Shown here: one piece after another, positions 14,487 to 56,634 of the stretch
Numbering within the stretch: the stretch's first letter is position 1
Layout of the letters: every line of letters begins with the position of its first letter
Virus record (IMG/VR): IMGVR_UViG_2541047938_000006
DNA: 64,000 nucleotides
Strand: one strand, 5' to 3'
Source: a virus
Lineage: Duplodnaviria > Heunggongvirae > Uroviricota > Caudoviricetes
Notes under the pieces: model-generated
What the model saw: only the letters and a program-made list of their open reading frames with translations
Databases searched by the model: none
What the model was told of the DNA's origin: nothing
Program-made: the position numbers and the translations under genes

Positions 14487-14496
14487 ACAGACTCCA

Positions 14497-14524
14497 GTAA
14501 AAAAAGCCCGACACGATGGTCGGG
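14497..14524 (-). terminator. Intrinsic terminator between internal virion protein gene and giant gene
   Basis: Hairpin GCCCGACACGATGGTCGGGC followed on minus strand by TTTTTTT, then RBS and ATG of giant ORF. Confidence 0.6.
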
Positions 14525-14570
14525 CGTAAGTGAACGAGATTAACGGTGAGTGCGTTACTGCCGCGTATTT

Positions 14571-15833
14571 TTACTTCATCCAGCCTTTGATCTTCTCGGC
14601 AGATGCGGAAGCGCTATAATCCAGCGCCTTTTCATGCTCTGCCTTTTTATCCCTGAGGTGATTCTGGTAATAAATTTCCACCTCCTTTTCACGACCAGGT
14701 TCCAGCAAAGCAGGCATATTGGCGGCAGTCGCTTTTACAAACTCCTGTTTAACCGGATCGCCCGCCGCCCACGTCTGCCACTTCTGTAAAAGCTGTTGGG
14801 TTTTCTGTTGCTGAATTTTCTGTTGATGCGGTTGTGAACCAGTCGCAGCATAATATTCATCCACCGCAGCCTGTGCATTACCGCCATTCTTGATCGCGTC
14901 CGCCGCTACGTTGCTGGCCCCCTTCTGAAGCTCTTTCAGAGAAAGTCCCTGCTGCTTCGGCATAAAATAACCATAATTTTTCGATATCTCTGCAAATTTG
15001 CTGCGATCCCTGACCTGAGCGATAGCCTTATCAACGGGTATCGCCAGCACGGTTTGATCATCAGGGTGCGCACTGCCGTATTCTGTTACAGGTTTATGCG
15101 CGGTGGAGCCATCGCTGTATGTGAGATCAAGGCCAATAAGTACGTACCCTTCCTGCTGCGCCGGTACGATACTGCCAATCCTGGCCTCTTTTATCGTTTT
15201 TTCCCCGGTTGAATCAGTCATGCCAATACGCTGTTGTAGTTCCGGGGCAAACACGCCGGAAAGCACATCGAGATTTTCCGGGGTATTCAGCGAAGCAATC
15301 GCCCTGTCCGGCTTATCATCAAAGATTTTCTGCAGGTTGTTCACGGCCTGACCCGCTTTCGCAGCATAGCCTACCGTTGACATCATCTTAAGCGGATTGG
15401 CGTCCGATAATTTACCGAACAGATGAGAAGCCGCATCATGGTCACCCGCATCAATCGCTTTTCCCAGCGCCGCCATCACAGGCTGATCGCGCGCCAGCAT
15501 ATCGTTATACTCAAGCCGTCGCTGGTTGTATTTCTGCAACTGGAGTCGTTGCTGTTCCATCCCCAGCGACGCATTCCGGTAATTCTGGTTGGCGTTAAAC
15601 TCCCTTTCCTGCAGTGTGTAATTGCGGTCATCAACTTTGGCTCTGTAATCAAAGTTCCGCTGATCAACGTCTTTATTATGTTCAAACTGAGACTGCGCAA
15701 ATTCAAAATCGCGCTCGTTATTTTTCTGTTGCTGAGCAAGCTGTGCTTCTCGCAAACCAAGCTCCTTACGACGGGTCATTGCCTGGTCAACAGTGCTGAA
15801 TCCGGCAAGTAACCCCTGTGCAAATCCGCTCAT
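14571..15833 (-). CDS. Hypothetical virion (internal/ejection) protein
   Basis: 420-aa ORF, RBS AAGGAG 6 nt upstream; Q/N-rich coiled-coil-like N-terminus; position in structural operon. Confidence 0.45.
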   Translation of the reverse strand: MSGFAQGLLAGFSTVDQAMTRRKELGLREAQLAQQQKNNERDFEFAQSQFEHNKDVDQRNFDYRAKVDDRNYTLQEREFNANQNYRNASLGMEQQRLQLQKYNQRRLEYNDMLARDQPVMAALGKAIDAGDHDAASHLFGKLSDANPLKMMSTVGYAAKAGQAVNNLQKIFDDKPDRAIASLNTPENLDVLSGVFAPELQQRIGMTDSTGEKTIKEARIGSIVPAQQEGYVLIGLDLTYSDGSTAHKPVTEYGSAHPDDQTVLAIPVDKAIAQVRDRSKFAEISKNYGYFMPKQQGLSLKELQKGASNVAADAIKNGGNAQAAVDEYYAATGSQPHQQKIQQQKTQQLLQKWQTWAAGDPVKQEFVKATAANMPALLEPGREKEVEIYYQNHLRDKKAEHEKALDYSASASAEKIKGWMK

Positions 15834-15843
15834 TCACCACTCC

Positions 15844-16095
15844 TTAAAACAAAGAACCAGCAATGCCGCCAATTACTGCACCAGCAACAGCGCCAACAGG
15901 ACCACCAACGGATGCGCCAATAGCCGCCCCCGTACCAATGCCCGTACCGATATTCTGCTTGTTCTGCGCTTTCTGCTGCGCCGCCATCTGTTTGTTCGCA
16001 GCCTCAATTTCTTCACGTCGTCGGTCTGCGTCACTTATTCCCTGTAATGCCTCACGCCGTGACTGATTCGCAATATCCAGTAAACCGTATCCCAT
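15844..16095 (-). CDS. Small glycine-zipper membrane protein
   Basis: 83-aa ORF with RBS AAGGAGG; C-terminus GTGIGTGAAIGASVGGPVGAVAGAVIGGIAGSLF. Confidence 0.45.
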   Translation of the reverse strand: MGYGLLDIANQSRREALQGISDADRRREEIEAANKQMAAQQKAQNKQNIGTGIGTGAAIGASVGGPVGAVAGAVIGGIAGSLF

Positions 16096-16104
16096 ATTTC
16101 CTCC

Positions 16105-16557
16105 TTACGCTGACACCAGTTGTCCGCCAACACTCAGTTGCTGTCTTGCAGGTGCAGAAGCCCCCGTCAGTATGTTCATCTGACGATCCTGCTCTGCTTC
16201 ACGGATACCATTTTTCGCGCCAGCAATTGCCAGGGCATTACGTAACCCCAGCGTATTACTGTTGGGATTATCAGGTCGGTTAACGCCATATCGTGCCATC
16301 TGGTTATCCTGCGCCATCTGCGCTGTACGGAGACTGGAAGTGGCAAGGCCGCCCACCCGGGCAAGCTGTGCATTCATCAGGCTGTTGTTCTCGCCAAGGT
16401 CAGCCAGCCTTGCTACACGGGGTAAATATCTGGTGCGCCAGTCGTCGTATTGCTGGCGGGTCAGCGCTGCGGATGTCTGCCAGTCCCCCTGAGGGCGGGC
16501 TGCTCCGGTATAACCGTATCTCGCAAGTGTTTCGTATTTACCGTACTCCATAATCAC
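16105..16557 (-). CDS. Hypothetical virion protein
   Basis: 150-aa ORF in operon context, overlaps neighbour by 4 nt. Confidence 0.4.
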   Translation of the reverse strand: MIMEYGKYETLARYGYTGAARPQGDWQTSAALTRQQYDDWRTRYLPRVARLADLGENNSLMNAQLARVGGLATSSLRTAQMAQDNQMARYGVNRPDNPNSNTLGLRNALAIAGAKNGIREAEQDRQMNILTGASAPARQQLSVGGQLVSA

Positions 16558-17210
16558 AGTCTCCAGTTCTGAGCCTGATGCTGAATGGCATTAGCGCCGG
16601 TGCCAGGTGTTTTAGCACCGCCACTTCCTCCGCTACCACCAGCCTTATGCATCGCATATGCACCTACCGCACCCAAACCAGCGCCAACAAGAGAGGCTCG
16701 CCCCTGTTGTTTCGTAAACGCAGCCTGTGCGTCCGATTTAGCTTTTGCCAGACTGCTGTCTGCCAGCGAGTTAAAACTCTGTAACGCATCTGCCTTCTGA
16801 CCGGAACCGAGAGCCGCAACATCCTGTAGCCCGGCAATATATTTATCTGCCTGCGATACCTGCCCCCGTGTGGTCGTGTCAATCTGCCCGATCACCTGGT
16901 CGCTTTGATTTGCATCCATTACTGCATTAAAACGACCACTGGATGGGTCAACGCCGGACTGAGCAAGATTACCCGCCAGCTCCCTTCGCGCTTCACCAAA
17001 CTGTTTCTGATACCCAAGATTTGTTGTGCCTGCGATATTTTCGTACTGCTGCTCACTGTTAAGGTCATCGACCTTTTTCATGAAGTTATCTTCTGCCGGA
17101 CGGAGAATATTTTTGTAATCCTGCCACCCTTTCCAGGCCACCTCTTCCTGTGCTATTTGCGCTGCTGTTGGTTTTACTTTGGTATCACCACCACCTTTAC
17201 TTCCGCCCAT
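16554..17210 (-). CDS. Hypothetical virion protein
   Basis: 218-aa ORF with RBS GAGGAG 5 nt upstream; Gly-rich termini. Confidence 0.45.
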   Translation of the reverse strand: MGGSKGGGDTKVKPTAAQIAQEEVAWKGWQDYKNILRPAEDNFMKKVDDLNSEQQYENIAGTTNLGYQKQFGEARRELAGNLAQSGVDPSSGRFNAVMDANQSDQVIGQIDTTTRGQVSQADKYIAGLQDVAALGSGQKADALQSFNSLADSSLAKAKSDAQAAFTKQQGRASLVGAGLGAVGAYAMHKAGGSGGSGGAKTPGTGANAIQHQAQNWRL

Positions 17211-17303
17211 AATGGCTCCTCAGATAACAAAAAACCCTGCCGGAGCAGGGTCAGAATGTGAATTGCAATGTGGGTTTACGCTCGATGATGAATACAGTGG
17301 CAG

Positions 17304-17705
17304 TCAGACTGCTATCCTGAACACCATGAAGCCATCCTCATCATCCGGCATTCGCTCAAAGCCCAGACGTTTTCCCAGCCGGATAAATCCTCGTCTTGCC
17401 GTATAAAATTCGGCCCAGCGTCCGCCAGCCAGGCGGGTTAATGTCTTCACCTCCGGCAGATAACGCTCAACACTCTTACTCCCCGTACACACGCCCAGTA
17501 ACACCAGAACATAAGGGATACCATCGTCACTGAGCACAGAACGCAGCACCAGAAAACCATCCGGCGCTTCAAAGCAAAACGCCTGCTTTTTAAGGCAGGC
17601 GTCTTTAACTTCATTCATAAATTCAGGGTTGCGGGAATTTCTCACAACACGCTGCATATACCGGAGAATTCTGTCGTCCATTCTCTCACCTGAAACGGGT
17701 GCCAT
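17304..17705 (-). CDS. Hypothetical protein
   Basis: 133-aa ORF between hok-like gene and virion genes. Confidence 0.35.
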   Translation of the reverse strand: MAPVSGERMDDRILRYMQRVVRNSRNPEFMNEVKDACLKKQAFCFEAPDGFLVLRSVLSDDGIPYVLVLLGVCTGSKSVERYLPEVKTLTRLAGGRWAEFYTARRGFIRLGKRLGFERMPDDEDGFMVFRIAV

Positions 17706-34875: not shown

Positions 34876-36581
34876 CAGTGAGCCATCCAGTGTGTGGTTC
34901 TGCGTTTATCCGTTTTCTGTTTTACCCTCACCGGCATTCTGGCGCGCATCTCCTGGGCAATCATGTAGCTCATAAGCTGATCATCAAAACAGCCTTCCTG
35001 TGCATTCATGGAGCCTTTCGCGTCATAAACGTAGGTGTTCATTTCTGATAATGTGCCCGACCAGCGGATCCCCGACAGGCCGTTATTCAGCAGCGTTTTC
35101 ATTCCCTCTGTCAGGACCGGTTTACTCTGGCGGGTTGTCAGCCAGCCAAGACGGGGCGTATCGTCGTCATATGCCTGGTCAAGGTGCTGTTCGTTGTAGA
35201 TATAACGCGTCGGATAGAGTTCCCTGAGTTTCAGGATAACGGCATGTCCGTGATTGTTACGCTCCGGCCCCACAAACGCATTGTTGTACATACGGCAGAC
35301 CTGCGCAATGAGATGAGCGAAAAGCTCCGCATCGAGATGACCAAACCAGTGAGCCACCTGCTCACCATTACTGCATCTGATGATATCCAGCGATGAGCGG
35401 TCTCCGTGCTCCAGCCCCTCAGCGGTATCCGCTCCGCATACATACTCTTCATCCGGATCCGGCAGCTCCCAGACCAGCAGATAATTCATCAGCGTCCGGT
35501 GCTGTTCGGCTTTATTCCCGTCACGCAGAGACTGCGCTTTGGTCTTCGTTCCTGTAACCGGTTCAATGTCATAAACAATCAGCGGTGGCGAACAGAATGA
35601 CTCTGCCTGCAGCGTGCTTTCCGCACTGAACACCCGTCGTCCTGACGTCAGAAACGCCTCCTGTGGCGTTGAGGGAAATTCCTGCTTCATTTCCTCACGC
35701 TGTTCAGTTTCCTTGCAGATGTACCAGTGTTTCTGCTCATCGGTAAGCGTGATGTTCATTGCTTTTTCAACCGCAGAAAAATACGCTGTTTTTTCCCGTG
35801 ACAGCTTAAGTCCGCTTTCCGGCACTCTGGCGCTGTATTTGAGATCCTGCCACCAGGCGTAAAAATGGAATTTATAATCCTGTGGCGTCAGCGCCAGCCC
35901 TGATGCAGTGATTTCCTGTGCCCGGTTACTCATCTCGTAAAAATCGCCACCCACACCTTCAGCAGTGGATTCATCAAAAATAATGCATTCATCAGAGACG
36001 GCATTAAGCGTACCGGTTCGCAGCTCTTTCGCCTTAGCCGGATATTTCGCGCAAATTTTGCCGTGTTCTGAGATATGCAGGCGCTGCACCGTACCTGAGC
36101 GAAATGAGGTTGCCACCTGAATACTCGAGCCGTGACCAAACAGGATATAGCCACCGCTGGCACCGCTACGACGTTCAACGATGGTGAATGAGGCTCTCAG
36201 CCAGTCAGGGAGATGATCAAACGGTACAGCAATTTTTGTGCGGAAAATTTCACTGGCAGCCTGTTTATCCTGAGCGACGATCCCGCATTTGAGATGCGGA
36301 ATGAATAATGCCTGGTCGAGAAGATAAATATCAATGGCTGTGGAAAATCCCAGCTGGCGCGCTTTCAGGATAATGTTTTTATTGTGCATGCTCCGGAACA
36401 ACTGGCGCTGCGCCGGTCGCATTCTGAAGGTGACCAGCTCACCTTTTTCGTTCTGTATTTTGTAGAGATGATTGAGCCGCCACCAGGGATTGCTCAGTTT
36501 AGTCATGATGAACAGACGTTGTTCGGTCCCGGTCATTTCTGACGGTTCATCACATCGCGGTTCATTCTTCCGGAATGTCAT
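34875..36581 (-). CDS. Terminase large subunit
   Basis: 568-aa ORF with ATPase-like N-terminal region and nuclease-like C-terminal region; precedes portal. Confidence 0.75.
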   Translation of the reverse strand: MTFRKNEPRCDEPSEMTGTEQRLFIMTKLSNPWWRLNHLYKIQNEKGELVTFRMRPAQRQLFRSMHNKNIILKARQLGFSTAIDIYLLDQALFIPHLKCGIVAQDKQAASEIFRTKIAVPFDHLPDWLRASFTIVERRSGASGGYILFGHGSSIQVATSFRSGTVQRLHISEHGKICAKYPAKAKELRTGTLNAVSDECIIFDESTAEGVGGDFYEMSNRAQEITASGLALTPQDYKFHFYAWWQDLKYSARVPESGLKLSREKTAYFSAVEKAMNITLTDEQKHWYICKETEQREEMKQEFPSTPQEAFLTSGRRVFSAESTLQAESFCSPPLIVYDIEPVTGTKTKAQSLRDGNKAEQHRTLMNYLLVWELPDPDEEYVCGADTAEGLEHGDRSSLDIIRCSNGEQVAHWFGHLDAELFAHLIAQVCRMYNNAFVGPERNNHGHAVILKLRELYPTRYIYNEQHLDQAYDDDTPRLGWLTTRQSKPVLTEGMKTLLNNGLSGIRWSGTLSEMNTYVYDAKGSMNAQEGCFDDQLMSYMIAQEMRARMPVRVKQKTDKRRTTHWMAH

Positions 36582-37368
36582 CCAGTCTCCCCGAATTACT
36601 CATTTCATGCAGCGATGACACGATGTCACTGACAGGCGTAACAACGCCCCGACGCTGGCTGGTCAGAATATCGGTTTCCGCTCTGAGTTTATCTCTGGCA
36701 GCGTTGATTCTTTCCCGGTCAGCACGAAGTTTTGGTGCTGTTTCCGCCAGAACGTCCAGCGTCAGCAATGAGCGTTCAATTGACTCGATACGGGCAATAT
36801 TCCGGTCAAGGGCCTGTTCTGCTTTGAGTATTTTGTCGTACAGGGCAACACGGGTTTCCACGTCAGCCGCCTCTTTCAGGTCGGCGAACATTTTTTTCAG
36901 TGTTCCTGTTACTGAAAGTGCGCGGGCACGGGTGAACACCAGTTCATCGAACAGCACCATATCGGACGCATCATCCATGAGGTTATCTGCCTCAAGATAC
37001 TTCGCATATCCACGGTGTCTCACGGCGTGGGTGTTACGGTCGCTAAACCGGGCAACGGGGTGAGGATTGCCCGATCTGCTGTTGCGTTTCGTTTCTGCCG
37101 AATTTGCGCAGTTTTTTTCAGAATTTTTTGCGCATTTTTCATCGTCGGAACCCGCGTCATTGCTGGGTTCTTCATCTGAGATGTCATGATCGATTTCATG
37201 ATCGGTTTTATGATCGATTTCATGATCGATTTTGCCCATTTTTATACGGGTTCTGGCGGTGTTGTAATTAATCTTTTTCTTACGGCACCACTCCAGTAAT
37301 GTTATTCCCGTTTCGGCATGTTCGCGTCGGAATGCCTGCTCCAGTTTTTTCCAGTCCAGCTTTGCCAT
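36562..37368 (-). CDS. Terminase small subunit (putative), contains 4 tandem 12-bp repeats
   Basis: 268-aa ORF immediately upstream of terminase large subunit with overlapping stop/start; internal repeats 37185-37232. Confidence 0.45.
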   Translation of the reverse strand: MAKLDWKKLEQAFRREHAETGITLLEWCRKKKINYNTARTRIKMGKIDHEIDHKTDHEIDHDISDEEPSNDAGSDDEKCAKNSEKNCANSAETKRNSRSGNPHPVARFSDRNTHAVRHRGYAKYLEADNLMDDASDMVLFDELVFTRARALSVTGTLKKMFADLKEAADVETRVALYDKILKAEQALDRNIARIESIERSLLTLDVLAETAPKLRADRERINAARDKLRAETDILTSQRRGVVTPVSDIVSSLHEMSNSGRLDDIPEE

Positions 37369-37667
37369 GTCACTTTCTGACGTCCTCTGTTAAAAACTGA
37401 CGCATAATGACCGCTGTGATTTTTCAGAATTCACACAGCAGCGTCTTGTTTGATTGATATTTACACAATATGGTTGTTTTATCCGGTTTCTTCCACCACC
37501 GCACCGGACAGGCGGCCATGCGGGAAAACGCTCACGTTACCTGAAAACGTGGAAAGCCCGGTGTGCATCGTTTTTGATTATCCCCACACACTCGCGCAGG
37601 AGGTCCAGTGTCTGGCTGAGGTCTCTGTTAATGCGGGAATACGGCGACGATACGGCGCATGGCTATG

Positions 37668-38219
37668 TCAGGCTGAAATGCCTTTATCAAATCCGGGTAA
37701 CGCAATCTGCCCCTGCTGCTCCAGCCTGTCCAGCCTTGCCAGCAACTGAGGCTTCTTCACCCTGCCCCAGCGATTGAGCAAACGACCTGACATACTGGCG
37801 ACATCTTTCTCTTTCATGTACTCCAGCATTACAGCGTTGCGCTCCGCCTCCAGATTCGCCAGACCTTGCTGAATAAGCTCAGCCATCCAGTTGAAAGCCT
37901 GAATGTACGCTTCCTTAAAGGTCATAGCAGCTTTCCCCGTAAAACCAAATACCAACATCGTCCAACCGTCTTTTGTCATTCGATATATGGGCTGGGGTTT
38001 ACCGTTCTGTAACTCATTGTTTTCATAGCAAAGCGCAAAATTGCGCTCTGCAAATTCTTTTGAGCATTGTTGAACAACGGCTCTTGTTTTCCGCAATACA
38101 TCTTTGTGTTCTTTGCCAAATGCTACGGCAACCTTTCGGGTATCCGTCACCGGCTCGTTGCCTGTCACAAAAACAAGATCGCGGAAATCAATACCGTTAA
38201 CAATCGTCGGATAGTTCAT
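37668..38219 (-). CDS. Rha-family phage regulatory protein
   Basis: 183-aa ORF; N-terminal region resembles Rha/antirepressor family. Confidence 0.6.
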   Translation of the reverse strand: MNYPTIVNGIDFRDLVFVTGNEPVTDTRKVAVAFGKEHKDVLRKTRAVVQQCSKEFAERNFALCYENNELQNGKPQPIYRMTKDGWTMLVFGFTGKAAMTFKEAYIQAFNWMAELIQQGLANLEAERNAVMLEYMKEKDVASMSGRLLNRWGRVKKPQLLARLDRLEQQGQIALPGFDKGISA

Positions 38220-42127: not shown

Positions 42128-43669
42128 ATGCCAACAGTTCCAATTTCTATGAGAAAACTTAAAGAAATTCTTAGGCTTAAATACGGTGTTGGACTCAGCC
42201 ATCGACAAATTGGTCGTAGTCTTGCAATCTCCCCTTCCGTTGTATCCAGATATGCTAATCGGGCGGCTCAACTTGGCATAAAGCAGTGGCCCTTACCTAC
42301 AGGATGGGATGATACAAAACTAAAACATGCGTTCCTTCAGACCCAGGTTAAGATGAAGAAGCACTCTCTGCCTGACTGGGCTACAGTACACCGGGAACTG
42401 CGTAATAAATGCGTGACGCTGCAGCTACTCTGGGAAGAATACTGTGAGCGTAATCCAGGCGGTTTTTACAGCTATAACCATTACTGCCGGATGTACCGTG
42501 AATGGCTCAAAACCACTTCACCATCAATGCGTCAGGTACATAAAGCTGGCGAAAAACTTTTCGTTGATTACTGTGGACCTACCGTTGGCGTTACCGACCC
42601 TGAGACCGGAGAAATAAGAACTGCTCAGGTCATCGTAGCTGTTCTCGGGGCATCAAGTTACACATGGGCAGAGGCCACCTGGTCTCAGCAGCTTGAAGAC
42701 TGGGTGATGAGTCATGTTCGCTGCTTCCAGTGGTTGGGTGGCGTTCCTGAACTTGTTGTTCCGGACAATCTGAAAAGCGCCACATCCAGGGCATGTAAGT
42801 ATGATCCTGACGTTAACCCTACCTACCAGCAGATGCTTGAGCATTATAATGTCGCAGTTTTGCCTGCGCGGCCACGTAAACCGAAAGATAAAGCCAAAGC
42901 TGAAGTTGGCGTTCAGGTTGTTGAACGCTGGATCATGGCCCGAATCAGGCATGAGATCTTCTACAGCCTTGCATCGCTTAATCAGCGCATTCGGGAGTTG
43001 CTGGAAAGACTGAATAACAAAATAATGCAGAAGTTGGGTTATTCACGTGCAGAACTCTTCATCCAGCTTGATAAACCCGCACTGAAGCCTCTTCCTGAAG
43101 CCAGTTACAGTTACACCCTGGTGAAGAAAGTCAGAGTTCATGCCGATTACCACGTGGAAATCGACAAACATTACTACTCGGTTCCATGTTCGCTGTTAGG
43201 CCAGCAACTGGAAGCATGGATCTCCGGAGAACTGGTAAGACTCTTCAATCAGGGGCAGGAGGTTGCTGTGCACCCGCGCAAGCGTACTTATGGCTACAGT
43301 ACCCGCAACGAGCACATGCCTGAAGCTCATCGACAGCATGCCACCTGGACGCCAGAGCGTCTTCTGGAATGGGCGGGGCACATAGGCAGTGAAACTCATA
43401 GTTATGTGCTTCATATACTGAACTCTCGTCCACATCCGGAACAAAGCTATCGCTTCTGCCTTGGACTCCTGAACCTTCATAAAAAATACAGTAAAGCCAG
43501 ACTTAATGCAGCATGTGCAAGAGCTCTGAAAACAAAGGTATGGCGTCTGTCAGGTATTAAATCGATCCTGGAAAAAGGTCTGGATAAACAACCTGTTCAG
43601 GATCCAAAACCAGATCTGTTATCCACGATGGAACACGAAAACGTACGCGGCAGTGAGTATTACCACTGA
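42128..43669 (+). CDS. istA: IS21-family transposase IstA
   Basis: 513 aa, N-terminal HTH and DDE-type core; followed by IstB. Confidence 0.85.
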   Translation: MPTVPISMRKLKEILRLKYGVGLSHRQIGRSLAISPSVVSRYANRAAQLGIKQWPLPTGWDDTKLKHAFLQTQVKMKKHSLPDWATVHRELRNKCVTLQLLWEEYCERNPGGFYSYNHYCRMYREWLKTTSPSMRQVHKAGEKLFVDYCGPTVGVTDPETGEIRTAQVIVAVLGASSYTWAEATWSQQLEDWVMSHVRCFQWLGGVPELVVPDNLKSATSRACKYDPDVNPTYQQMLEHYNVAVLPARPRKPKDKAKAEVGVQVVERWIMARIRHEIFYSLASLNQRIRELLERLNNKIMQKLGYSRAELFIQLDKPALKPLPEASYSYTLVKKVRVHADYHVEIDKHYYSVPCSLLGQQLEAWISGELVRLFNQGQEVAVHPRKRTYGYSTRNEHMPEAHRQHATWTPERLLEWAGHIGSETHSYVLHILNSRPHPEQSYRFCLGLLNLHKKYSKARLNAACARALKTKVWRLSGIKSILEKGLDKQPVQDPKPDLLSTMEHENVRGSEYYH

Positions 43670-43680
43670 TACGGGATCCA

Positions 43681-44430
43681 ATGATGAATCATCTTTACGA
43701 ACAACTGACCGCACTTAAACTCACCGGCTTCCGTGATGCGCTTAAAAAGCAACTTGCTCAGCCGGGCACATACCAGGAGCTGGGCTTCGAAGAACGCCTG
43801 TCATTACTGACAGCAGAAGAACTAACCTGCCGTGAAAACAGGAAGGCAGAGCGTCTGATCAAACATGCACGGTTCAGACTTAATGCTGAGTTATCAAAGC
43901 TGGATTATCGTAACAATAGAGGGCTGGACAGGGCCCTCATCCGTTCACTCAGTCAGGGAAACTGGTTAACCCTGAAACAAAATATTTTACTGACCGGGGC
44001 CACCGGCAGCGGTAAAACGTTCCTGGCATGTGCACTTGGTCATAATGCCTGCCGACAGGGATACAAGGTCTACTATTATCGCCTTAAAGCGCTGATGGAA
44101 CAGTGCTATCAGGGGCATGCTGATGGAAGATACAGCAAACTTTTGACCAGGCTGAATAATAGCGATCTGCTGCTTCTGGATGACTGGGGGCTGGAACCTC
44201 TCTCATCAGAACAGCGTAGCGACCTGCTGGAAATAGTGGATCTGATGTACCAACGAGGCTCAATCATCGTAGTGAGCCAGTTGCCGGTGGAAAACTGGTA
44301 CAAAATGATCGGAGACTCCACACATGCGGATGCCATCCTAGATCGACTGGTTCATGGCAGTATCAAGATCGAACTTAAAGGAGAATCAATGCGGAAAATA
44401 CAATCTCCGTTGACCGAAGGAGATCAGTGA
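43681..44430 (+). CDS. istB: IS21-family ATP-binding helper IstB
   Basis: 249 aa with Walker A GATGSGKTFLACALG and Walker B LLLLDDWG. Confidence 0.9.
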   Translation: MMNHLYEQLTALKLTGFRDALKKQLAQPGTYQELGFEERLSLLTAEELTCRENRKAERLIKHARFRLNAELSKLDYRNNRGLDRALIRSLSQGNWLTLKQNILLTGATGSGKTFLACALGHNACRQGYKVYYYRLKALMEQCYQGHADGRYSKLLTRLNNSDLLLLDDWGLEPLSSEQRSDLLEIVDLMYQRGSIIVVSQLPVENWYKMIGDSTHADAILDRLVHGSIKIELKGESMRKIQSPLTEGDQ

Positions 44431-44515
44431 AGGTAATTTAAAAACGGTTCTGTGAAAGTGACACGAACCGATCTCCATCGATGTTACTCACCGATCTCCT
44501 TCACGGTAATACGCA

Positions 44516-45399
44516 GTGTCACCACAAATCCAGGGCACCAGAGAAGGAGAAGCACCAGCGCACTGACCGGATACTCCCGCCAGGTCAGAACGGTATTTTT
44601 CCACCATGGCATCAAACATGGCGGGCTGACTGGCGTACGCTCCCTGTTTTAAATCAAACTCGCCCTGCATCCAGACAACACAAAGTAGTATGTTTTTGGG
44701 GTTTGCCTTCAGCGCGGCCTGAGTGCGTGTCAGCAGGTCTTTATACAACGGCTTATCAACGCCCCATCGTTCAGATTTATCCGACGCTCCTGAACTTTCA
44801 CTGAACGTTCCGTCAGCACCGGCTGTAAACGCAGAGCCACCACGACAGCACGGCACTAACAAAATACCCGCATTTTCCGGCATAAAGGGCAACAGCTTTT
44901 TGGCAATATGCAATCCCTGTCCGACACACCCATACTGCTCTGCGCTGGCTTTCGGATGAGAAAAACGGCTCAAATCCTGCACATCATGCAGGCAGTGGTC
45001 CGCCGGAATGATGTCGTTATATGCACAGGCCGCACCACCCGGTGTCACCGTACTGCGACGCGCCAGCTGTTTAATACGCGGGTCCGGACGGTCATATGTC
45101 TCCGGCAGCGGCAGGCCTTCACCATACGCCATGCCGTTTGACTGTCCGGCCAGCGCAATGACAAAGTAATATTCTGGTTCAACAACAACAGTCCGGGTAC
45201 CATCTCCCCCCGGTGAAACTACCGGAGAGGTCATATCCCCTTCAGCGACTATAGCCTGGATAAATTCAGCACCATAACCCGCGTTTGAGATAATCGGACT
45301 ACCATAGGGTTGCCAGCCTTCCTTCAGTTTTTGCGTCAGTTTTCCTGCGAGGTCTGACGGCGATGATGCCCTGACCACGTCATAGTGTTTAAATGCCAT
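44516..45399 (-). pseudogene. nanS-p-type sialate O-acetylesterase, N-terminal part (DUF1737-like + esterase start)
   Basis: Start MAFKHYDV with RBS GGGAGG; region YYFVIALAGQSNGMAYGEGLPLP...CCRGGSAFTAG matches recalled YjhS/NanS N-terminal half; reading frame ends inside IS terminus. Confidence 0.8.
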
Positions 45400-48568: not shown

Positions 48569-48760
48569 CTATCCGGAGTGACAATTAAATCTTGCTCGAC
48601 GCCTTAGCCACCGGATATCCCACAGGTGAGCCGTATAGTTGAAGGTTTTAACATCAGATTCTTTGGGGACTGGCCTGGGTTTATTTCGGGAGCGTTTGGT
48701 TGGAAGGTAATTGCAGTTTTCACAGACGATATCGGTGATGCTTCGTCGCTGTCGTCTCAT
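48569..48760 (-). CDS. ninE: NinE
   Basis: 63 aa; [27 protein letters not shown]...[16 protein letters not shown] matches recalled lambda NinE. Confidence 0.75.
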
Positions 48761-49167
48761 TCGTACCTCCTGTCGGTAAATCTGACACCCTGATCCACGG
48801 CCCAGGATGTTGTGTACTCAATCAGGCTTGCCATACGCTTCACGCTCATTTGCGCACTGCTTTCGCGGATATTGACGTATTCACCTTCAAGACCTGGCAA
48901 AACATCAGCTTCCTGTTTTGTCGCCACGGCATGACCGCTTATTAACAAAACTTTCCACTGTTCTGGTTTTAGCCACCTGCCGCACCACTTAACCTGGCGG
49001 GATATATCAGCGACCATCGCGTGAAATTTTGCATTTTGAGCGAGATTACGCTTGTAATCGGTGATACGGATCGTAACGGGTTTGTCTTTATCGAGAGTTG
49101 TTGCAAGGATGGCGTTAATGGCGAATTGTTGCTGCTGCTTACTTCGGAGGAAGATAGTCTGGTTCAT
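48757..49167 (-). CDS. ninB: NinB recombination protein
   Basis: 136 aa; similarity to recalled lambda NinB ([23 protein letters not shown] vs QNRKLWACLGDVSRQVEWHGRWL). Confidence 0.8.
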
Positions 49168-49896: not shown

Positions 49897-50202
49897 AACG
49901 ACCTCGCGTTTCGATAATTTTTACCTCACCACCTTCAGGTGCTAATCATCGTGGTGGCGAACTGTGCGGGGTTAGCACTACCGGTCGAAACATCCGGCGA
50001 GCCTTTCGGCTCCCCCACACAGCCCGCCATAAATCGCGAATGTGACTGTGCTTAGCGCATAAAAAAACCGCCAGCGCGGTTATGCACCGTTTCGATATCC
50101 GGGGTGCTAATCCCGACGCCAGATTTTGCTGGCGTGCGAAGAATATAATCCCGGATATGTGTTGTCGTCAACATACCTTGAATGTATATAACAAATTTGT
50201 TA

Positions 50203-50543
50203 TGTTTACTCTCATAAACTACATTATCGAATACTACAGTGACGAGGTTGAAGCTGAGATCCTTTCTCTTCCTGAGACCTTACAAGCCAGGTACATTCGG
50301 TACACGGAGAAAATGCGTATTTACGGAGCTAATCTTGGTTCCCCGCATACAGAGGCATTTGGCGACGGTTTGTTTGAAATCCGCCTTAAGGGCTCGGAAG
50401 GCATAGGGCGTGTTTTTTACTGCACGCTAAAAGGAAAGCGAATCATTATGTTGCATAGCTTTGTAAAGAAAACGCAAAAAACTCCACCTGCCGAGCTTAG
50501 AAAAGCTGAAACCAGAATGAAGGAGGTTAAGCATGACTGGTAA
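50203..50543 (+). CDS. HigB/RelE-superfamily toxin (Gp49-like)
   Basis: About 113 aa from ATG at 50203 within ORF 50082..50543; pattern ...FEIRLKGSEGIGRVFYCTLKGKRIIMLHSFVKKTQKTPPAELRKAE typical of Gp49/HigB-like toxins; overlaps downstream HTH gene. Confidence 0.6.
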
Positions 50544-50841
50544 ACGTACCCCACCTACCATGACACACGATGAAATGGTAGAAAAAATGTTGTCTAACCC
50601 CGCAGTAAAAGCAGAATACGACGCCATCGCCGATGAATTCGCACTACTTGATGAAATGCTGGCAGCACGAAAAGAAGCTGGCTTAACCCAGGCTGAAGTT
50701 GCTGAACGTATGGGAACAAAAGCGACTGCGATAACCAGAATGGAAAGCAATCTTGCATCAGGTACAAGCGGCCCATCATTTGCCACACTGAAAAAATTCG
50801 CCCGTGCTACAGGGAAAAAACTCCAGATCCGCTTCGTTTAA
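50533..50841 (+). CDS. XRE-family HTH antitoxin (HigA-like)
   Basis: 102 aa with HTH (GLTQAEVAERMGTKATAITRMES); start overlaps toxin gene end. Confidence 0.65.
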   Translation: MTGKRTPPTMTHDEMVEKMLSNPAVKAEYDAIADEFALLDEMLAARKEAGLTQAEVAERMGTKATAITRMESNLASGTSGPSFATLKKFARATGKKLQIRFV

Positions 50842-50895: not shown

Positions 50896-51140
50896 TCACC
50901 GGATTACCACATCCCACTCCGGCTCCTGCCATCTCAAATCCGGTGAATCATTTCTCTCAGGAATAACCATTACGTCCTTTTCCCTTCGCTCCCTTTCTAT
51001 CGCCATCACAGCCAATGCTGCAACCATGATGTATTTTTGTTCGTCGGTTCCTGTTTCATAACGACGCATGAGGGTAAACTCGGGGCGATCAGTAACCTCA
51101 ATGATTTCGTTAATTTCTTTAATTTCGCGAGGAATATCCA
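50896..51140 (-). CDS. Hypothetical small protein
   Basis: About 81 aa from MDIPREIK with RBS AAGGAG; start codon overlaps start of divergent 51140 gene (CCATGG). Confidence 0.25.
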
Positions 51141-51814
51141 TGGGTTTAGTCTCCTTTGATATCACATGCCCGCACTGTTTAAAAGAGCGAGCTGTTATTG
51201 AGGCATTTGCCGAAAAACAAATTGAAAAAACACCTTTTTTTAACGTCGCTTTTGTATGCAGAAGTTGTCATCGAGGAGGTGTTGCTATTGTTGAAATCCC
51301 ATCAGACCACTATCACGGTCCCATGGCGGAAAGCCAGAAAAAAGACCTCGATATTCTGATTTCAGGAAATAGCCAGTACCGTTTCCGCAAGATCTATCCT
51401 GTGGTCAAAAAAATTACCGCACCAGAATATACACCCCCGGTTGCAGACCGTACTTTTGTTGAGGCAAAAGAGGATTTACAGAGGAGGCGGTACGACACAG
51501 TGGTTATTCTTTGTCGCAGAGTCCTCGATATCTCCACGAAAAAACTGCTCGGCGATGAAGCAGGAAAAGAATCGCTGTCGCAACGTATTCAGATGATTTA
51601 CAAAAAAGGCCTGATCACTGAACAGATGAAGGAATGGGCTCATATTGTACGAATTGATGCCAATAAAGCAGTTCATACAGATGAAGTTTTCACACCAATT
51701 GAGGCAAGCCAGATCCTGAGTTTTACCGAAATGTTTTTAGTCTACGCCTTCACTCTGCCTGCAATGGTGGAAGCCAGACGTGAACAAAAAAGATCAGATT
51801 CAGCCTCTATATGA
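51140..51814 (+). CDS. Zn-ribbon + DUF4145-like protein (moron, candidate defence gene)
   Basis: About 224 aa from ATG 51140 (RBS GAGGAA); CPHC...CRSCH zinc-ribbon-like N-terminus; C-terminal region resembles DUF4145; opposite strand to surrounding operon. Confidence 0.45.
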   Translation: MGLVSFDITCPHCLKERAVIEAFAEKQIEKTPFFNVAFVCRSCHRGGVAIVEIPSDHYHGPMAESQKKDLDILISGNSQYRFRKIYPVVKKITAPEYTPPVADRTFVEAKEDLQRRRYDTVVILCRRVLDISTKKLLGDEAGKESLSQRIQMIYKKGLITEQMKEWAHIVRIDANKAVHTDEVFTPIEASQILSFTEMFLVYAFTLPAMVEARREQKRSDSASI

Positions 51815-51846
51815 ATCACTTTTCTGAACACGTAAGCCCCCGTCAT

Positions 51847-52284
51847 TCACGACGGGGAGAACATCAATCCCTCTGCACTCCCTCGCCAGAATGCCAGCAC
51901 ACGCTGCATCGTTTCGCTGTTACGGCACTCGCGACAAATTGTGTTGTAGCGTCTGTCGTAGCGCCGTATTTCCCCATCTGGTAATGCCCGGATAAGGTCT
52001 GGATCAACGACAACCGGTTTCTTCGACTTTGCCCTTGAGAGTTTTTTGCGGGCATTTTGCCAGTCCTTACGAGCCTGTTCAGACGGGAATACTCCGTAAC
52101 CGGAATTGTAAACATCACCACTGGCGGCCAGCTCCATGCATAAACGACCGACAGACGCATGACTGACACCAATTTCATCCGATAACTGCCGAATCGTGCC
52201 TCGTCCGTTAAGGCGTACGAATTCCACGATCAGCCCCTTAATTTTTTCCCGCTCTTCTGGTGTAAATGCTCTTGTCATAAGCAC
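51847..52284 (-). CDS. HTH-domain phage protein
   Basis: 145-aa ORF with predicted HTH (IRQLSDEIGVSHASVGRL). Confidence 0.4.
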   Translation of the reverse strand: MLMTRAFTPEEREKIKGLIVEFVRLNGRGTIRQLSDEIGVSHASVGRLCMELAASGDVYNSGYGVFPSEQARKDWQNARKKLSRAKSKKPVVVDPDLIRALPDGEIRRYDRRYNTICRECRNSETMQRVLAFWRGSAEGLMFSPS

Positions 52285-53089: not shown

Positions 53090-53830
53090 TCACATACCCT
53101 GACGTCCAACGTTTGACCGCCAGCTCTCCCAGTTAAAATTCACCCAACGACCACCATTCATGGTCATACGGTCCATCACTCGCTCCCCCAGAAGCCTGCT
53201 CATCGCACCGTGATTCAGGTTAGTCAGCATCCCGACACTGCGCAGTGATGCCGTTCTGCGGTCGACGATCTGGTTCAGTATGACCTGCTCGTTGCGCGTA
53301 TCCCGCTGCATGCCAATTTCATCAAGGACCAGAAGGTCAACTCCACAAAGCTCCTGTAAAAATTTTTCCCCGGACTTGCCGTTGTCGTAGCCGTCATGCA
53401 ACACACTCATGACATCGGACACGGTGACGATAATCACGCTTCTCCCCTTCGCCATTAGCCAGTTGCCAATCGCTGCTGCAAGGTGATTTTTCCCGGTGCC
53501 AGGTTTACCGCTGAACACGAAATTCGTGCAGCCGGTATGCAGCTCTGCCGCGATGGATTTTGCCTGACTCAGAGCATGGCGCTGACCGTCGTTCTGCACC
53601 CGGTAGTTCCCGAATGAGCACTTCCTGTGAAGCGGCTGGATGCCCGAACGGTTCAGGATTTTTTCAACCCGCGCCTGATGATTCAGGCGGTTAATTTCCT
53701 CGCTGCGCTTACGGCCCTCAGCCAGTTGCCATTCCCGCCATTCGTCGGTCGTCCGGAACGGTGCTGCCACGTGCGGTGGTGCCAGACGGCGCACCCGTTC
53801 AAGAATCCCTCCTGTCGAAATGTTTTTCAT
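53090..53830 (-). CDS. Replicative helicase loader (DnaC-like AAA+ ATPase)
   Basis: 246 aa with Walker A GKPGTGKNHLAAAIG and Walker B LLVLDEIG. Confidence 0.8.
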   Translation of the reverse strand: MKNISTGGILERVRRLAPPHVAAPFRTTDEWREWQLAEGRKRSEEINRLNHQARVEKILNRSGIQPLHRKCSFGNYRVQNDGQRHALSQAKSIAAELHTGCTNFVFSGKPGTGKNHLAAAIGNWLMAKGRSVIIVTVSDVMSVLHDGYDNGKSGEKFLQELCGVDLLVLDEIGMQRDTRNEQVILNQIVDRRTASLRSVGMLTNLNHGAMSRLLGERVMDRMTMNGGRWVNFNWESWRSNVGRQGM

Positions 53831-53836
53831 GGCTGA

Positions 53837-54925
53837 TTACCCCCTGAAACCCGGCGGAATTTCGGTGTCCGGTTCAGAAATGTGATTCACGCAACGCAGG
53901 CTGACTGCGCCAGCCTTCGGCAGCGACCACGGATTTTCGAAATTCCTGTTCGGGCCAAAAAACGTCGATGCCTGCTGAACAAATTCAGTTCCCGCTTTCC
54001 CGGTAGCCTCCAGGTATCTTGCGTAACGCCTCACGCCATCCAGCACGACATCCGGTGACACCCCTTCGCGTAATCTGGCCCTCCAGGCATTGAACGCGGA
54101 TTTCTTCGGGTTTGACCCTGCCCGATGCGGATATTCACGCCAGACCCGTTCGAACACGTCAGGATAATCAACTCGTCCCGCAGACGGTCCCGGCATCGCC
54201 CGGGTTAACCCAATCGGCTTCCCGCTCATCGCGGAATCGGCTTCAGGCTGCTGCGGTTGGCGTTGTTGCTCCGGTTCGACGATCAGCACCTGCTGCACAC
54301 AACGCCCGGAATCTGCTTCCGGTGTCGTGCCAGCTGGTCCTGGACGTTCAGTCAGAACAGGACAAAAATCCCCCTGCGGGTCCGTGGCGATTTTTTCGCC
54401 ATGGACCAGAAGGGTTTTATCCCTTTCCTGTTCTTGTTCTTGTTCCTGTTCCTGTTCTTGGCTTGAAAGGGGCTCTGAAGGGGCTTCAATTTTCCGACAT
54501 GATTCACGTCTGACATCCAGGTGGAAATCATCCTTATATCTATCATAAAAGGATGATAAAAAAGGATTTTCCAGCAACGCGGAATATTCATTTCTTACCC
54601 CAGCACAACGGTTATCGCCAGGTTTCAGCGATTCACCAACCTGCCATGCTGCCATTTCATGCACCCATACAACCTCAGAATCATGGTCATAGCTGCAAAA
54701 ACCAGCCTCGCAAGCCATTTGAAGCCCCTTAGAAGCCCCTTCAGGAGCAAGTCCGGTTTCGTGAGCAATGTACAAAACAGGCAGGTAATAAAGGCCCAGC
54801 ATATTGGAATGAGGCGAGGTCATCATATACAACGCCACTACCATACATTCCGGACCAGACTTCCTTAGTTTTCGCCCTGTATCGCCTAACCAGAACTGAG
54901 GTGAAATTGTTGCGTAATTACGCAT
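53837..54925 (-). CDS. Replication initiation protein (O-like) with internal (EQ)n repeat
   Basis: 362-aa ORF upstream of helicase loader; hexanucleotide repeats 54420-54460 encode SQEQEQEQEQEQE; contains one copy of a 60-bp repeat. Confidence 0.55.
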   Translation of the reverse strand: MRNYATISPQFWLGDTGRKLRKSGPECMVVALYMMTSPHSNMLGLYYLPVLYIAHETGLAPEGASKGLQMACEAGFCSYDHDSEVVWVHEMAAWQVGESLKPGDNRCAGVRNEYSALLENPFLSSFYDRYKDDFHLDVRRESCRKIEAPSEPLSSQEQEQEQEQEQERDKTLLVHGEKIATDPQGDFCPVLTERPGPAGTTPEADSGRCVQQVLIVEPEQQRQPQQPEADSAMSGKPIGLTRAMPGPSAGRVDYPDVFERVWREYPHRAGSNPKKSAFNAWRARLREGVSPDVVLDGVRRYARYLEATGKAGTEFVQQASTFFGPNRNFENPWSLPKAGAVSLRCVNHISEPDTEIPPGFRG

Positions 54926-54954
54926 AGTCCCCTCGCATACAAGATTTACTCCAT

Positions 54955-55130
54955 ACCGCAGACGGTCCCGGTATCTCCCGGGTTAACCCAATCGGCTTCA
55001 GGCTGCTGCGGTTGGTGTGACTGCACATTGGTGTGACTGCACATCTTCACAGACGGTCCCGGTATCTCCGGGTTAACCCAATCGGCTTCAGGCTGCTGCG
55101 GTTGGTGTTGTTGCTGGCGAAATTCTTCCA
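54955..55130. repeat. Two tandem about 60-80-bp repeats upstream of replication gene, homologous to an internal segment of that gene (54180-54275)
   Basis: CAGACGGTCCCGGTATCTCC(C)GGGTTAACCCAATCGGCTTCAGGCTGCTGCGGTTGGTG occurs at about 54957 and 55048, related copy inside the gene. Confidence 0.6.
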
Positions 55131-55178
55131 GATGTGGCAGAATTATTCCCGTGTATTGCTCCATGCCCTGCCTGAATA

Positions 55179-55926: not shown

Positions 55927-56634
55927 ATGAAAACATTCGCAGAAAGACTAAATGCCGCCATGAGTTCAGCCGGGTTGTCACAAGCACAACTTGCAGACAT
56001 GGTGGGGGTATCACAACCAGCCATACAAAAGATGTCATCTGGTAAAACAACCGGATCACGTAAAATGGTCGAATTAGCCAACGCGTTAAGAGTTCGCCCT
56101 GAATGGCTAAGCTCTGGTATAGGGTCAATGAGACCACAGAGCGCAGAAGAGCCATCTAATGCTCGGGAATCATCTTTAAAAGCTATCGCCTGGGATGATC
56201 ATCAAAATGATAATGACGAATTTGTTGCGCTCCCCCTTCTAAATATTTCACTTTCAGCTGGCGGAGGAAGTTGTGCATTGGAGGAGTCCGCAGAATTCTC
56301 TCTAGTTTTTAGGCGCTATTACCTGAAAAAAATGGGAGTTCCAGAAAAAGCGGCAAAGTTGGTCAGGGTTGTTGGGCAAAGCATGGAGCCAACACTCCAT
56401 GATGGTGATGTGGTGGGGGTAAACACGCAAGATACGAGCATCAGGGATGGTAAAACATATGCAATTTGCCAAGCTGATTTGTTAAGGGTAAAAACGCTCA
56501 TAGCCACGCCAACATCGGTAATTATCAGATCGATAAACCGCGAAGAGTATCCTGATGAAGTAATGAACAGAGAAGAATTCTACAAAAACGTAAGAATCAT
56601 AGGGCGAGTGTTCTGGTCATCACATAGCTGGTAA
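55927..56634 (+). CDS. cI: CI repressor (HTH + S24 LexA-like autopeptidase domain)
   Basis: 235 aa; N-terminal HTH; C-terminal GQSMEPT Ser motif and downstream Lys. Confidence 0.9.
   Translation: MKTFAERLNAAMSSAGLSQAQLADMVGVSQPAIQKMSSGKTTGSRKMVELANALRVRPEWLSSGIGSMRPQSAEEPSNARESSLKAIAWDDHQNDNDEFVALPLLNISLSAGGGSCALEESAEFSLVFRRYYLKKMGVPEKAAKLVRVVGQSMEPTLHDGDVVGVNTQDTSIRDGKTYAICQADLLRVKTLIATPTSVIIRSINREEYPDEVMNREEFYKNVRIIGRVFWSSHSW

Follow-up and report, generated by a model that had tools for sequence, protein, structure and literature searches.

A gene at positions 51140–51814 (plus strand) of a 64,000-nucleotide stretch of viral DNA (IMG/VR record IMGVR_UViG_2541047938_000006; the whole stretch is referred to below as the window) is best interpreted, with moderate confidence, as encoding a prophage-borne, RAZR-like abortive-infection nuclease. 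Judged from its sequence and a predicted structure, the 224-amino-acid product contains an N-terminal Cys4 zinc ribbon, for which zinc binding is predicted, and a C-terminal DUF4145-type HEPN domain. The window holds a lambdoid prophage whose early-right operon lies on the minus strand, and the gene opposes that operon. The gene itself is already present in databases and the kind of system is already known. What is new is that the gene belongs to a large prophage-borne sister branch, and that most of this branch carries a conserved small gene that lacks an assigned function and overlaps the nuclease gene at the start codon.

Domain architecture of the predicted nuclease

The open reading frame (ORF) starts with ATG, carries a GAGGA Shine-Dalgarno sequence 8 nucleotides upstream and ends with TGA. 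Its coordinates are exactly those given by the first-pass annotation, an earlier model-made reading of the nucleotide letters, as is its orientation counter to the early-right operon; it lies on the plus strand. The product is 100% identical to WP_032144013.1, named 'DUF4145 domain-containing protein' in RefSeq, and matches phrog_1305 with an E-value of 1.3e-63. The reading frame is a genuine gene and not a chance ORF; its description as a RAZR-like zinc-ribbon plus DUF4145/HEPN gene draws on the translation, Pfam, phrog_1305, the RefSeq identity and an AlphaFold2 (AF2) model. The nuclease gene and a DUF977 gene converge, and the gap between their ends contains a perfect 7-bp GC-rich hairpin (CCCCGTC-ATTCAC-GACGGGG, 51838–51857); this hairpin is not a canonical intrinsic terminator because a T-run is missing after it on both strands.

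Pfam assigned DUF4145 (PF13643) to residues 118–197 (E = 3.9e-9; 36.9 bits, over the gathering score of 23.1), which is the sole significant domain match of the protein. DUF4145 is an RNase domain of the HEPN superfamily (PMC3710099). The cysteines near the N terminus follow the pattern C10-P-H-C13 ... C40-R-S-C43-H44, and the family profile weakly matches zinc ribbons of the RPB9/TFIIS type (1i3q_I, E = 0.26; 1qyp, E = 1.1). The first-pass annotation had described a zinc-ribbon-like CxxC...CxxCH N terminus and a DUF4145-like C-terminal region and had proposed a profile check for both; both were detected. An alignment of 38 homologues (37–71% identity) showed that C10, C13, C40 and C43 are invariant, as are R171, N175 and H179 and the linker prolines P87, P95 and P99. 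The canonical HEPN catalytic motif is Rx4-6H, and the DUF4145 domain of RAZR has R-x7-H. The protein contains a single R-x7-H motif, formed by R171-IDA-N175-KAV-H179.

The AF2 model computed with the family alignment (predicted local distance difference test score, pLDDT, 90.4; predicted template modelling score, pTM, 0.78) has a β-rich N-terminal domain (strands 20–27, 33–40 and 46–52), a short helix and a strand, and a helical C-terminal domain; the modelled all-α C-terminal fold matches HEPN domains. On the plus strand of the window, the Cys4 zinc-ribbon domain, presumed to be the sensor, occupies residues 1–52 (51140–51295), as supported by the alignment, the model and the weak profile matches. 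It is followed by a variable connector (residues 53–92; 51296–51415) that closes with the conserved YP...AP..TP linker, the part that aligns with the linker of RAZR. The putative DUF4145-type HEPN RNase domain, which contains the R-x3-N-x3-H motif, spans residues 93–212 (51416–51775), with the predicted catalytic R171 at 51650–51652 and H179 at 51674–51676. Mean pairwise identity among the homologues is 0.45 in the zinc ribbon, lowest in the connector (0.24) and 0.66 in the HEPN domain. Evolution is much faster in the N-terminal half than in the nuclease half.

A distant relationship to RAZR

PD-T7-4 was found in a functional screen in E. coli (PMC9519451) and later renamed RAZR, for ring-activated zinc-finger RNase (PMC13017515, Zhang et al., Nature 2026). 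It is a single-protein abortive-infection defence from E. coli UMB1727 (PMC9519451, PMC13017515) whose N-terminal Cys4 zinc ribbon is joined to a C-terminal DUF4145 HEPN RNase, with R146 and H154 as essential residues. RAZR alone is not toxic and acts by abortive infection: 24 copies assemble around ∼170 Å rings of phage portal proteins or of an Erf-like recombinase, the triggers being portal or Gp77 rings, and the activated enzyme cleaves single-stranded RNA and halts translation. Its zinc-finger domain, which the authors superimposed on the ribbon 1qyp, is the most variable part of the protein and determines specificity (all PMC13017515).

The PADLOC hidden Markov model (HMM) for PD-T7-4 matches the 224-residue protein at an E-value of 0.0022 (15.5 bits) over part of the model only, and it matches 20 of the 38 family members, with a best E-value of 2.8e-7. 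Standard pipelines would therefore probably not call the protein PD-T7-4. Almost all database gene calls for RAZR homologues are N-terminally truncated, at ∼150 amino acids, and one Raoultella locus truly lacks the ribbon. A RAZR-Ec-like sequence was rebuilt from two overlapping database fragments (P0119 and P0098), and its numbering reproduces R146 and H154. Against this sequence BLASTP gave 24% identity over 141 amino acids (E = 3e-5), while hhalign aligned columns 78–208 with columns 50–179 of RAZR, covering the linker and the HEPN domain, at 95.5% probability (E = 1.5e-8); the alignments obtained by both methods start at residues 78–80 of the 224-residue protein. The family profile also aligned residues 84–182 with chain 9y9c_OA of PDB entry 9y9c, the RAZR structure with 24 chains of a 'DUF4145 domain-containing protein', placing RiDsNgAVH over RIVGNQAVH.

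These alignments indicate a real but distant homology between the linker and HEPN part of the protein and that of RAZR/PD-T7-4. The likeness extends to the overall layout. Both proteins have ∼210–225 residues, a Cys4 ribbon starting with CPHC, a proline-rich linker and a C-terminal DUF4145 HEPN domain; the R-x3-N-x3-H spacing is equal (R146/H154 in RAZR, R171/H179 here); variability is highest in the N-terminal domain in both families; and both are found on mobile elements. The 224-residue protein differs in having ∼25 extra residues (53–80) between ribbon and linker. On sequence grounds it is a distant relative of the same architecture and not an orthologue of RAZR.

A large family that lives in prophages

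Scanning of 1.84 billion cluster representatives with HMMER retrieved 209 matches at E ≤ 1e-30, 1422 at E ≤ 1e-10 and 3383 at E ≤ 1e-3, and nearly all of the best 150 are full length (200–235 amino acids). A scan of viral contigs yielded 105 confirmed family matches, of which 80 were kept. Prophages encoding homologues were found in E. coli, Yersinia, Enterobacter, Citrobacter, Klebsiella and Paraburkholderia, and in all contexts examined the homologue is a lone gene that opposes its neighbours. Its site varies: the slot between the replication genes and the nin region in E. coli and Yersinia, a position adjoining int–xis in Enterobacter, the interval between the lysis genes and the small terminase gene in Citrobacter, a comparable late-region site in Klebsiella and the early operon in Paraburkholderia. 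The family is a large branch that lives almost entirely inside prophages. One Yersinia prophage with the same cassette (L010/L011, 9490–10410) additionally encodes a BstA-family (BstA_C) abortive-infection protein beside its repressor, so two defence morons appear to be carried by one phage.

Within E. coli, the nuclease gene is present in 37 of 5426 complete genomes, and sister phages have other DNA in its place; 1512 genomes contain matches to parts of the 2.4-kb stretch around the gene. In strain S1-CAM-02-A (NZ_CP145707.1, H31/H69) an IS3-family element splits the gene after ∼375 nucleotides. This sparse occurrence and the interrupted copy mark the gene as accessory. Compared with a Shiga toxin (Stx) phage whose flanks are 96–100% identical, only the interior of the nuclease gene falls to 50–70% nucleotide identity.

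The small start-overlapping gene

A second conserved gene lies directly against the nuclease gene. It occupies 50896–51141 on the minus strand, which is the strand of the operon, encodes 81 amino acids and belongs to phrog_8371; its assignment draws on conservation, coding pattern and an AF2 model. The ATG of the small gene and that of the nuclease gene overlap within the tetranucleotide CATG, and the small gene has its own AAGGAG ribosome-binding site. It is protein-coding, as indicated by a codon-position substitution pattern and a stop-free frame. Its product had zero matches in Pfam or NCBIfam and is predicted by AF2 to form a three-helix bundle, with block-mean pLDDT at least 93 across residues 1–50. 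The linked small proteins of the family have 60–81 amino acids and three predicted helices.

Yersinia (52% identity) and Paraburkholderia (35–42%) encode homologues of the small protein that overlap the nuclease gene in the same way, and the arrangement is conserved across Enterobacterales and Paraburkholderia. In all contexts inspected the small gene shares the orientation of the phage operon, to which the nuclease gene is opposed. The pair occupies different positions in unrelated phages, which indicates that the two genes move as a cassette. The small gene is present at 66 of 104 loci that encode a nuclease homologue, with a nearly constant one-base offset. When the nucleases were clustered at 90% identity, it was always present in 27 of the 44 clusters, never in 16 and variably in one, and it is absent from two nuclease sub-clades. 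In common lambdoid phages of E. coli the nuclease gene is replaced and a small gene of 91% identity is retained; in lambdoid phages lacking the nuclease, homology stops at position 51137 of the window, three bases short of the overlapping start codons.

Comparison with other HEPN systems

A parallel in lifestyle is HepS, an abortive-infection HEPN protein of the Gifsy-1 prophage (PDB 9oik; PMC13043305). Like the protein described here, HepS is a single HEPN protein of a lambdoid-type prophage and faces the same self-targeting problem; it responds to a structural protein of the incoming phage by cleaving RNA. HepS avoids self-targeting through a non-triggering variant of the tail tip (PMC13043305).

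DS-38 (HEP2, WP_001313577.1) is a validated E. coli defence protein with a HEPN domain and a zinc finger that came from the DefensePredictor screen (PMC13092281; bioRxiv 10.1101/2025.01.08.631726). Its authors compared it with PD-T7-4 and judged the zinc-finger domain to be different (PMC13092281). Identity with the present protein was ruled out, since the DS-38 gene has 1101 nucleotides (∼366 amino acids) and WP_032144013 is absent from the supplementary tables of that paper.

Three further systems share a DUF4145 HEPN domain in a defence context with the 224-residue protein: BREX-associated BxaP (PMC10799925), the anti-plasmid protein Ishtar (bioRxiv 10.64898/2026.07.06.735840) and DUF4145 fused to HsdR (PMC3710099). 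In these proteins, however, an N-terminal DUF4145 is fused to HEAT-like, β-rich or restriction/helicase modules, and they have neither the zinc-ribbon-first layout nor a small partner gene. The HEPN-MNT (HepT/MntA) type II/VII toxin–antitoxin (TA) systems differ in that HepT lacks a zinc ribbon and the two genes are co-transcribed and not divergent. A HEPN-MNT pair was also rejected for this locus: a nucleotidyltransferase domain was not found in any neighbouring ORF, and the only linked gene encodes the three-helix protein.

A model for abortive infection and its alternatives

The first-pass annotation had guessed that a counter-oriented gene at this position might serve superinfection exclusion or abortive infection. 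This is the best-supported reading, given the DUF4145 and Cys4 profiles, the 95.5% hhalign probability to RAZR and the occurrence of the family as a lone counter-oriented prophage gene. By analogy with RAZR, the nuclease would be produced in the lysogen in an inactive form. When a superinfecting phage makes a particular protein, which for RAZR is a large ring of portal or Erf-like recombinase, the zinc-ribbon domain would bind it. The bound nuclease would then oligomerise so that its HEPN domains pair into composite active sites, and non-specific cleavage of single-stranded RNA would stop translation and abort the infection. The variable N-terminal half and the conserved HEPN half fit the pattern reported for RAZR, in which a fast-evolving sensor is joined to a conserved effector. 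The trigger is not predictable because the ribbon domains differ from those of RAZR.

Several observations weigh against this interpretation. At the protein level, the profile match to 9y9c is weak (E = 0.11), and a search of PDB sequences with the single 224-residue sequence returned no match even at an E-value of 10. The catalytic loop (residues 173–179) is the one low-confidence stretch of the AF2 model (pLDDT < 50). The zinc ribbons cannot be aligned with that of RAZR beyond the CPHC knuckle (−0.6 bits; no BLASTP alignment over the N-terminal 60–80 residues). Common ancestry of the ribbons is still compatible with this, as the zinc-finger domain of RAZR is itself highly variable; equally, the trigger could differ entirely from that of RAZR, as has been argued for DS-38 and PD-T7-4. 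At the gene level, the RAZR-Ec gene is co-directional behind an integrase gene, overlaps the integrase 3′ end and has no partner gene, whereas the gene here is counter-oriented in a phage operon and its start codon usually overlaps that of the divergent small gene. A consensus scan revealed no convincing σ70 promoter 5′ of the nuclease gene, and a relaxed scan of 18 diverse loci gave no −35/−10 pair at a conserved position for either the nuclease gene or the small gene. A literature search turned up no paper on this zinc-ribbon plus DUF4145 family. With regard to the small gene, other E. coli phages (L107–L111) carry it without the nuclease gene, and the small protein is still 96% identical where the nuclease is 71% identical; both facts disfavour a tightly co-evolving inhibitor pair. 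One promoter candidate, TTTCAT-15-TAAACT, was discarded, since it lies within the small gene, on its conserved RPEF/RYE codons, and is inseparable from the constraint on the protein.

If the gene encodes an abortive-infection nuclease, the prophage lifestyle of the branch makes self-targeting acute. The resident prophage encodes Bet/Red-β and a portal-sized ORF (36000–38144). Bet/Red-β forms rings. Since the prophage itself thus encodes ring-formers, self-activation must somehow be avoided. The arrangement weakly suggests that the small protein, or head-on overlapping transcription, restrains or regulates the nuclease during the prophage's own lytic programme. A more specific proposal, possible if on the unlikely side, is that the small gene is a self-immunity or anti-defence factor made only during lytic growth of the prophage and silencing its own nuclease. 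It would act either by its protein product or by transcription that runs head-on over the overlapping start codons, such that the prophage's ring-forming proteins (portal, Red-β) would trigger no suicide; the orphan small genes of sister phages without the nuclease would then serve as anti-defence against resident prophages that carry it. If true, this would be a new, genetically hard-wired way for a prophage to carry an abortive-infection system without killing itself, different from the escape of HepS by a trigger variant. The small gene is in any case a concrete and easily testable candidate for solving or regulating self-targeting.

The linkage of the two genes also agrees with a TA addiction pair, in which a constitutively dangerous HEPN toxin and a three-helix antitoxin would mainly stabilise the prophage and not sense phages. 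This is unlikely, as such a pair does not agree with the divergent arrangement, with the sub-clades that lack the small gene and with RAZR's lack of intrinsic toxicity. Quite unlikely, too, is a regulatory or RNA-processing factor for the phage's own life cycle, which would cleave, for example, particular transcripts or tRNAs of the host or the phage in the lysogen or upon induction and would have no part in immunity. The location of the gene within the phage early region speaks for such a factor, HEPN RNases do include RNA-processing enzymes (PMC3710099), and the head-on placement of the nuclease gene to an operon gene suggests that it is tied to the transcription programme of the phage. A life-cycle function, however, fits poorly with an accessory gene found in 37 of 5426 complete E. 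coli genomes while parts of its 2.4-kb surroundings match in 1512, which is replaced in sister phages, split by an IS3-family element in one strain and variable in site between phages; the fast-evolving N-terminal domain also suits an arms-race sensor better than a housekeeping protein. A zinc-finger DNA-binding protein with a catalytically inert HEPN-like domain, as the 'DNA binding protein' label of phrog_1305 and the same name in two RefSeq phage records would have it, is highly improbable, because the label has no supporting domain match, DUF4145/HEPN is the sole significant domain and the R/N/H motif is invariant across the family, which is unexpected of an inert domain.

That RAZR is an immune nuclease, activated as it wraps around rings of phage protein, is a recent finding. 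The match of the present protein to the PADLOC PD-T7-4 model is marginal, and current defence annotation may miss this branch. If its triggers differ from those of RAZR, the fast-evolving zinc ribbon would extend the range of targets that sensor-nucleases of this class are known to recognise, and would help to account for superinfection immunity among the Stx-type phages of pathogenic E. coli and Shigella.

The surrounding prophage

In agreement with the first-pass annotation, the cassette is located between the replication genes and the nin region. The repressor gene (55927–56634, plus strand) is followed by cro-like and cII genes. The O-like replication gene (53837–54925, minus strand), an IstB/DnaC-like gene (53090–53830, minus strand) and the DUF1627 and DUF977 genes lie on one side of the cassette; NinB (48757–49167), NinE, RusA and NinH lie on the other, leading on to the lysis and structural genes. 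From the O-like gene to NinH these replication and nin genes are all minus-strand genes. An association of the DUF4145 gene with restriction–modification was discarded, as restriction–modification genes were not found nearby.

Next to the cassette, on the plus strand, is a separate TA moron consisting of a Gp49/RelE-ParE-family toxin gene (50202–50543; PF05973, E = 5e-27) and an HTH_3 antitoxin gene (50533–50841; PF01381, E = 3.6e-11). The first-pass annotation had listed a HigB/HigA-like pair at 50203–50841; the toxin/antitoxin pair is real according to Pfam, with the start corrected to 50202. It had further placed three counter-oriented genes here, and their orientation holds. They do not form one uninterrupted block, as the minus-strand 81-codon ORF (50896–51141), which the first-pass annotation had overlooked, sits between the pair and the nuclease gene. 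In near-identical phages the same slot carries a HigB-like gene and a helix-turn-helix (HTH) gene (L003, 5126–5709) or a RelE gene with two HTH genes (L107, 3309–4309). The TA pair is thus an independent cassette, being swapped for unrelated pairs in otherwise near-identical phages, and the slot appears to be a hotspot of TA swapping.

The closest phage records by protein identity are Escherichia phage PhiR5_2 (100%) and the Shigella Stx phages 75/02 and POCJ13 (98%). The prophage contains an N4-gp56-type capsid gene and a giant gene with an LPD38 domain (8.4 kb, 9295–17673). A SASA-family carbohydrate esterase gene (43426–45399, minus strand) lies downstream of the Q/nin region, where relatives carry stx; in L003 a RIP/Shiga-toxin A gene is found at the corresponding place. 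On the basis of the capsid gene, the LPD38 protein and the esterase in the stx position, the prophage looks like a 933W/Stx-phage-like element without toxin genes.

Accessory genes of the late/right-arm region (6676–9144, 19031–19282 and 20949–22058) encode a PAPS reductase and IbrB-like pair, a Panacea-domain protein, a 'bacteriocin', Hok/Gef and an Ail/Lom outer-membrane protein. The first part of the window (1–5400) contains an IS66-family element (ISEc8) and truncated selenate reductase genes of the ynfE/ynfF/ynfG type, which suggests that the prophage resides in or beside the ynf locus. A ∼60-nucleotide repeat occurs once within the O-like gene (54178–54263) and twice just upstream of it (54956–55018 and 55050–55108), in an annotated 72-codon ORF (54946–55164). 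Near these copies TTGGTGTGACTGCACA is repeated in tandem at 55012–55043, and the ∼60-nucleotide repeats look iteron- or origin-like. The O-like protein itself contains a (QE)n run, which derives from a tandem repeat at 54425–54460.

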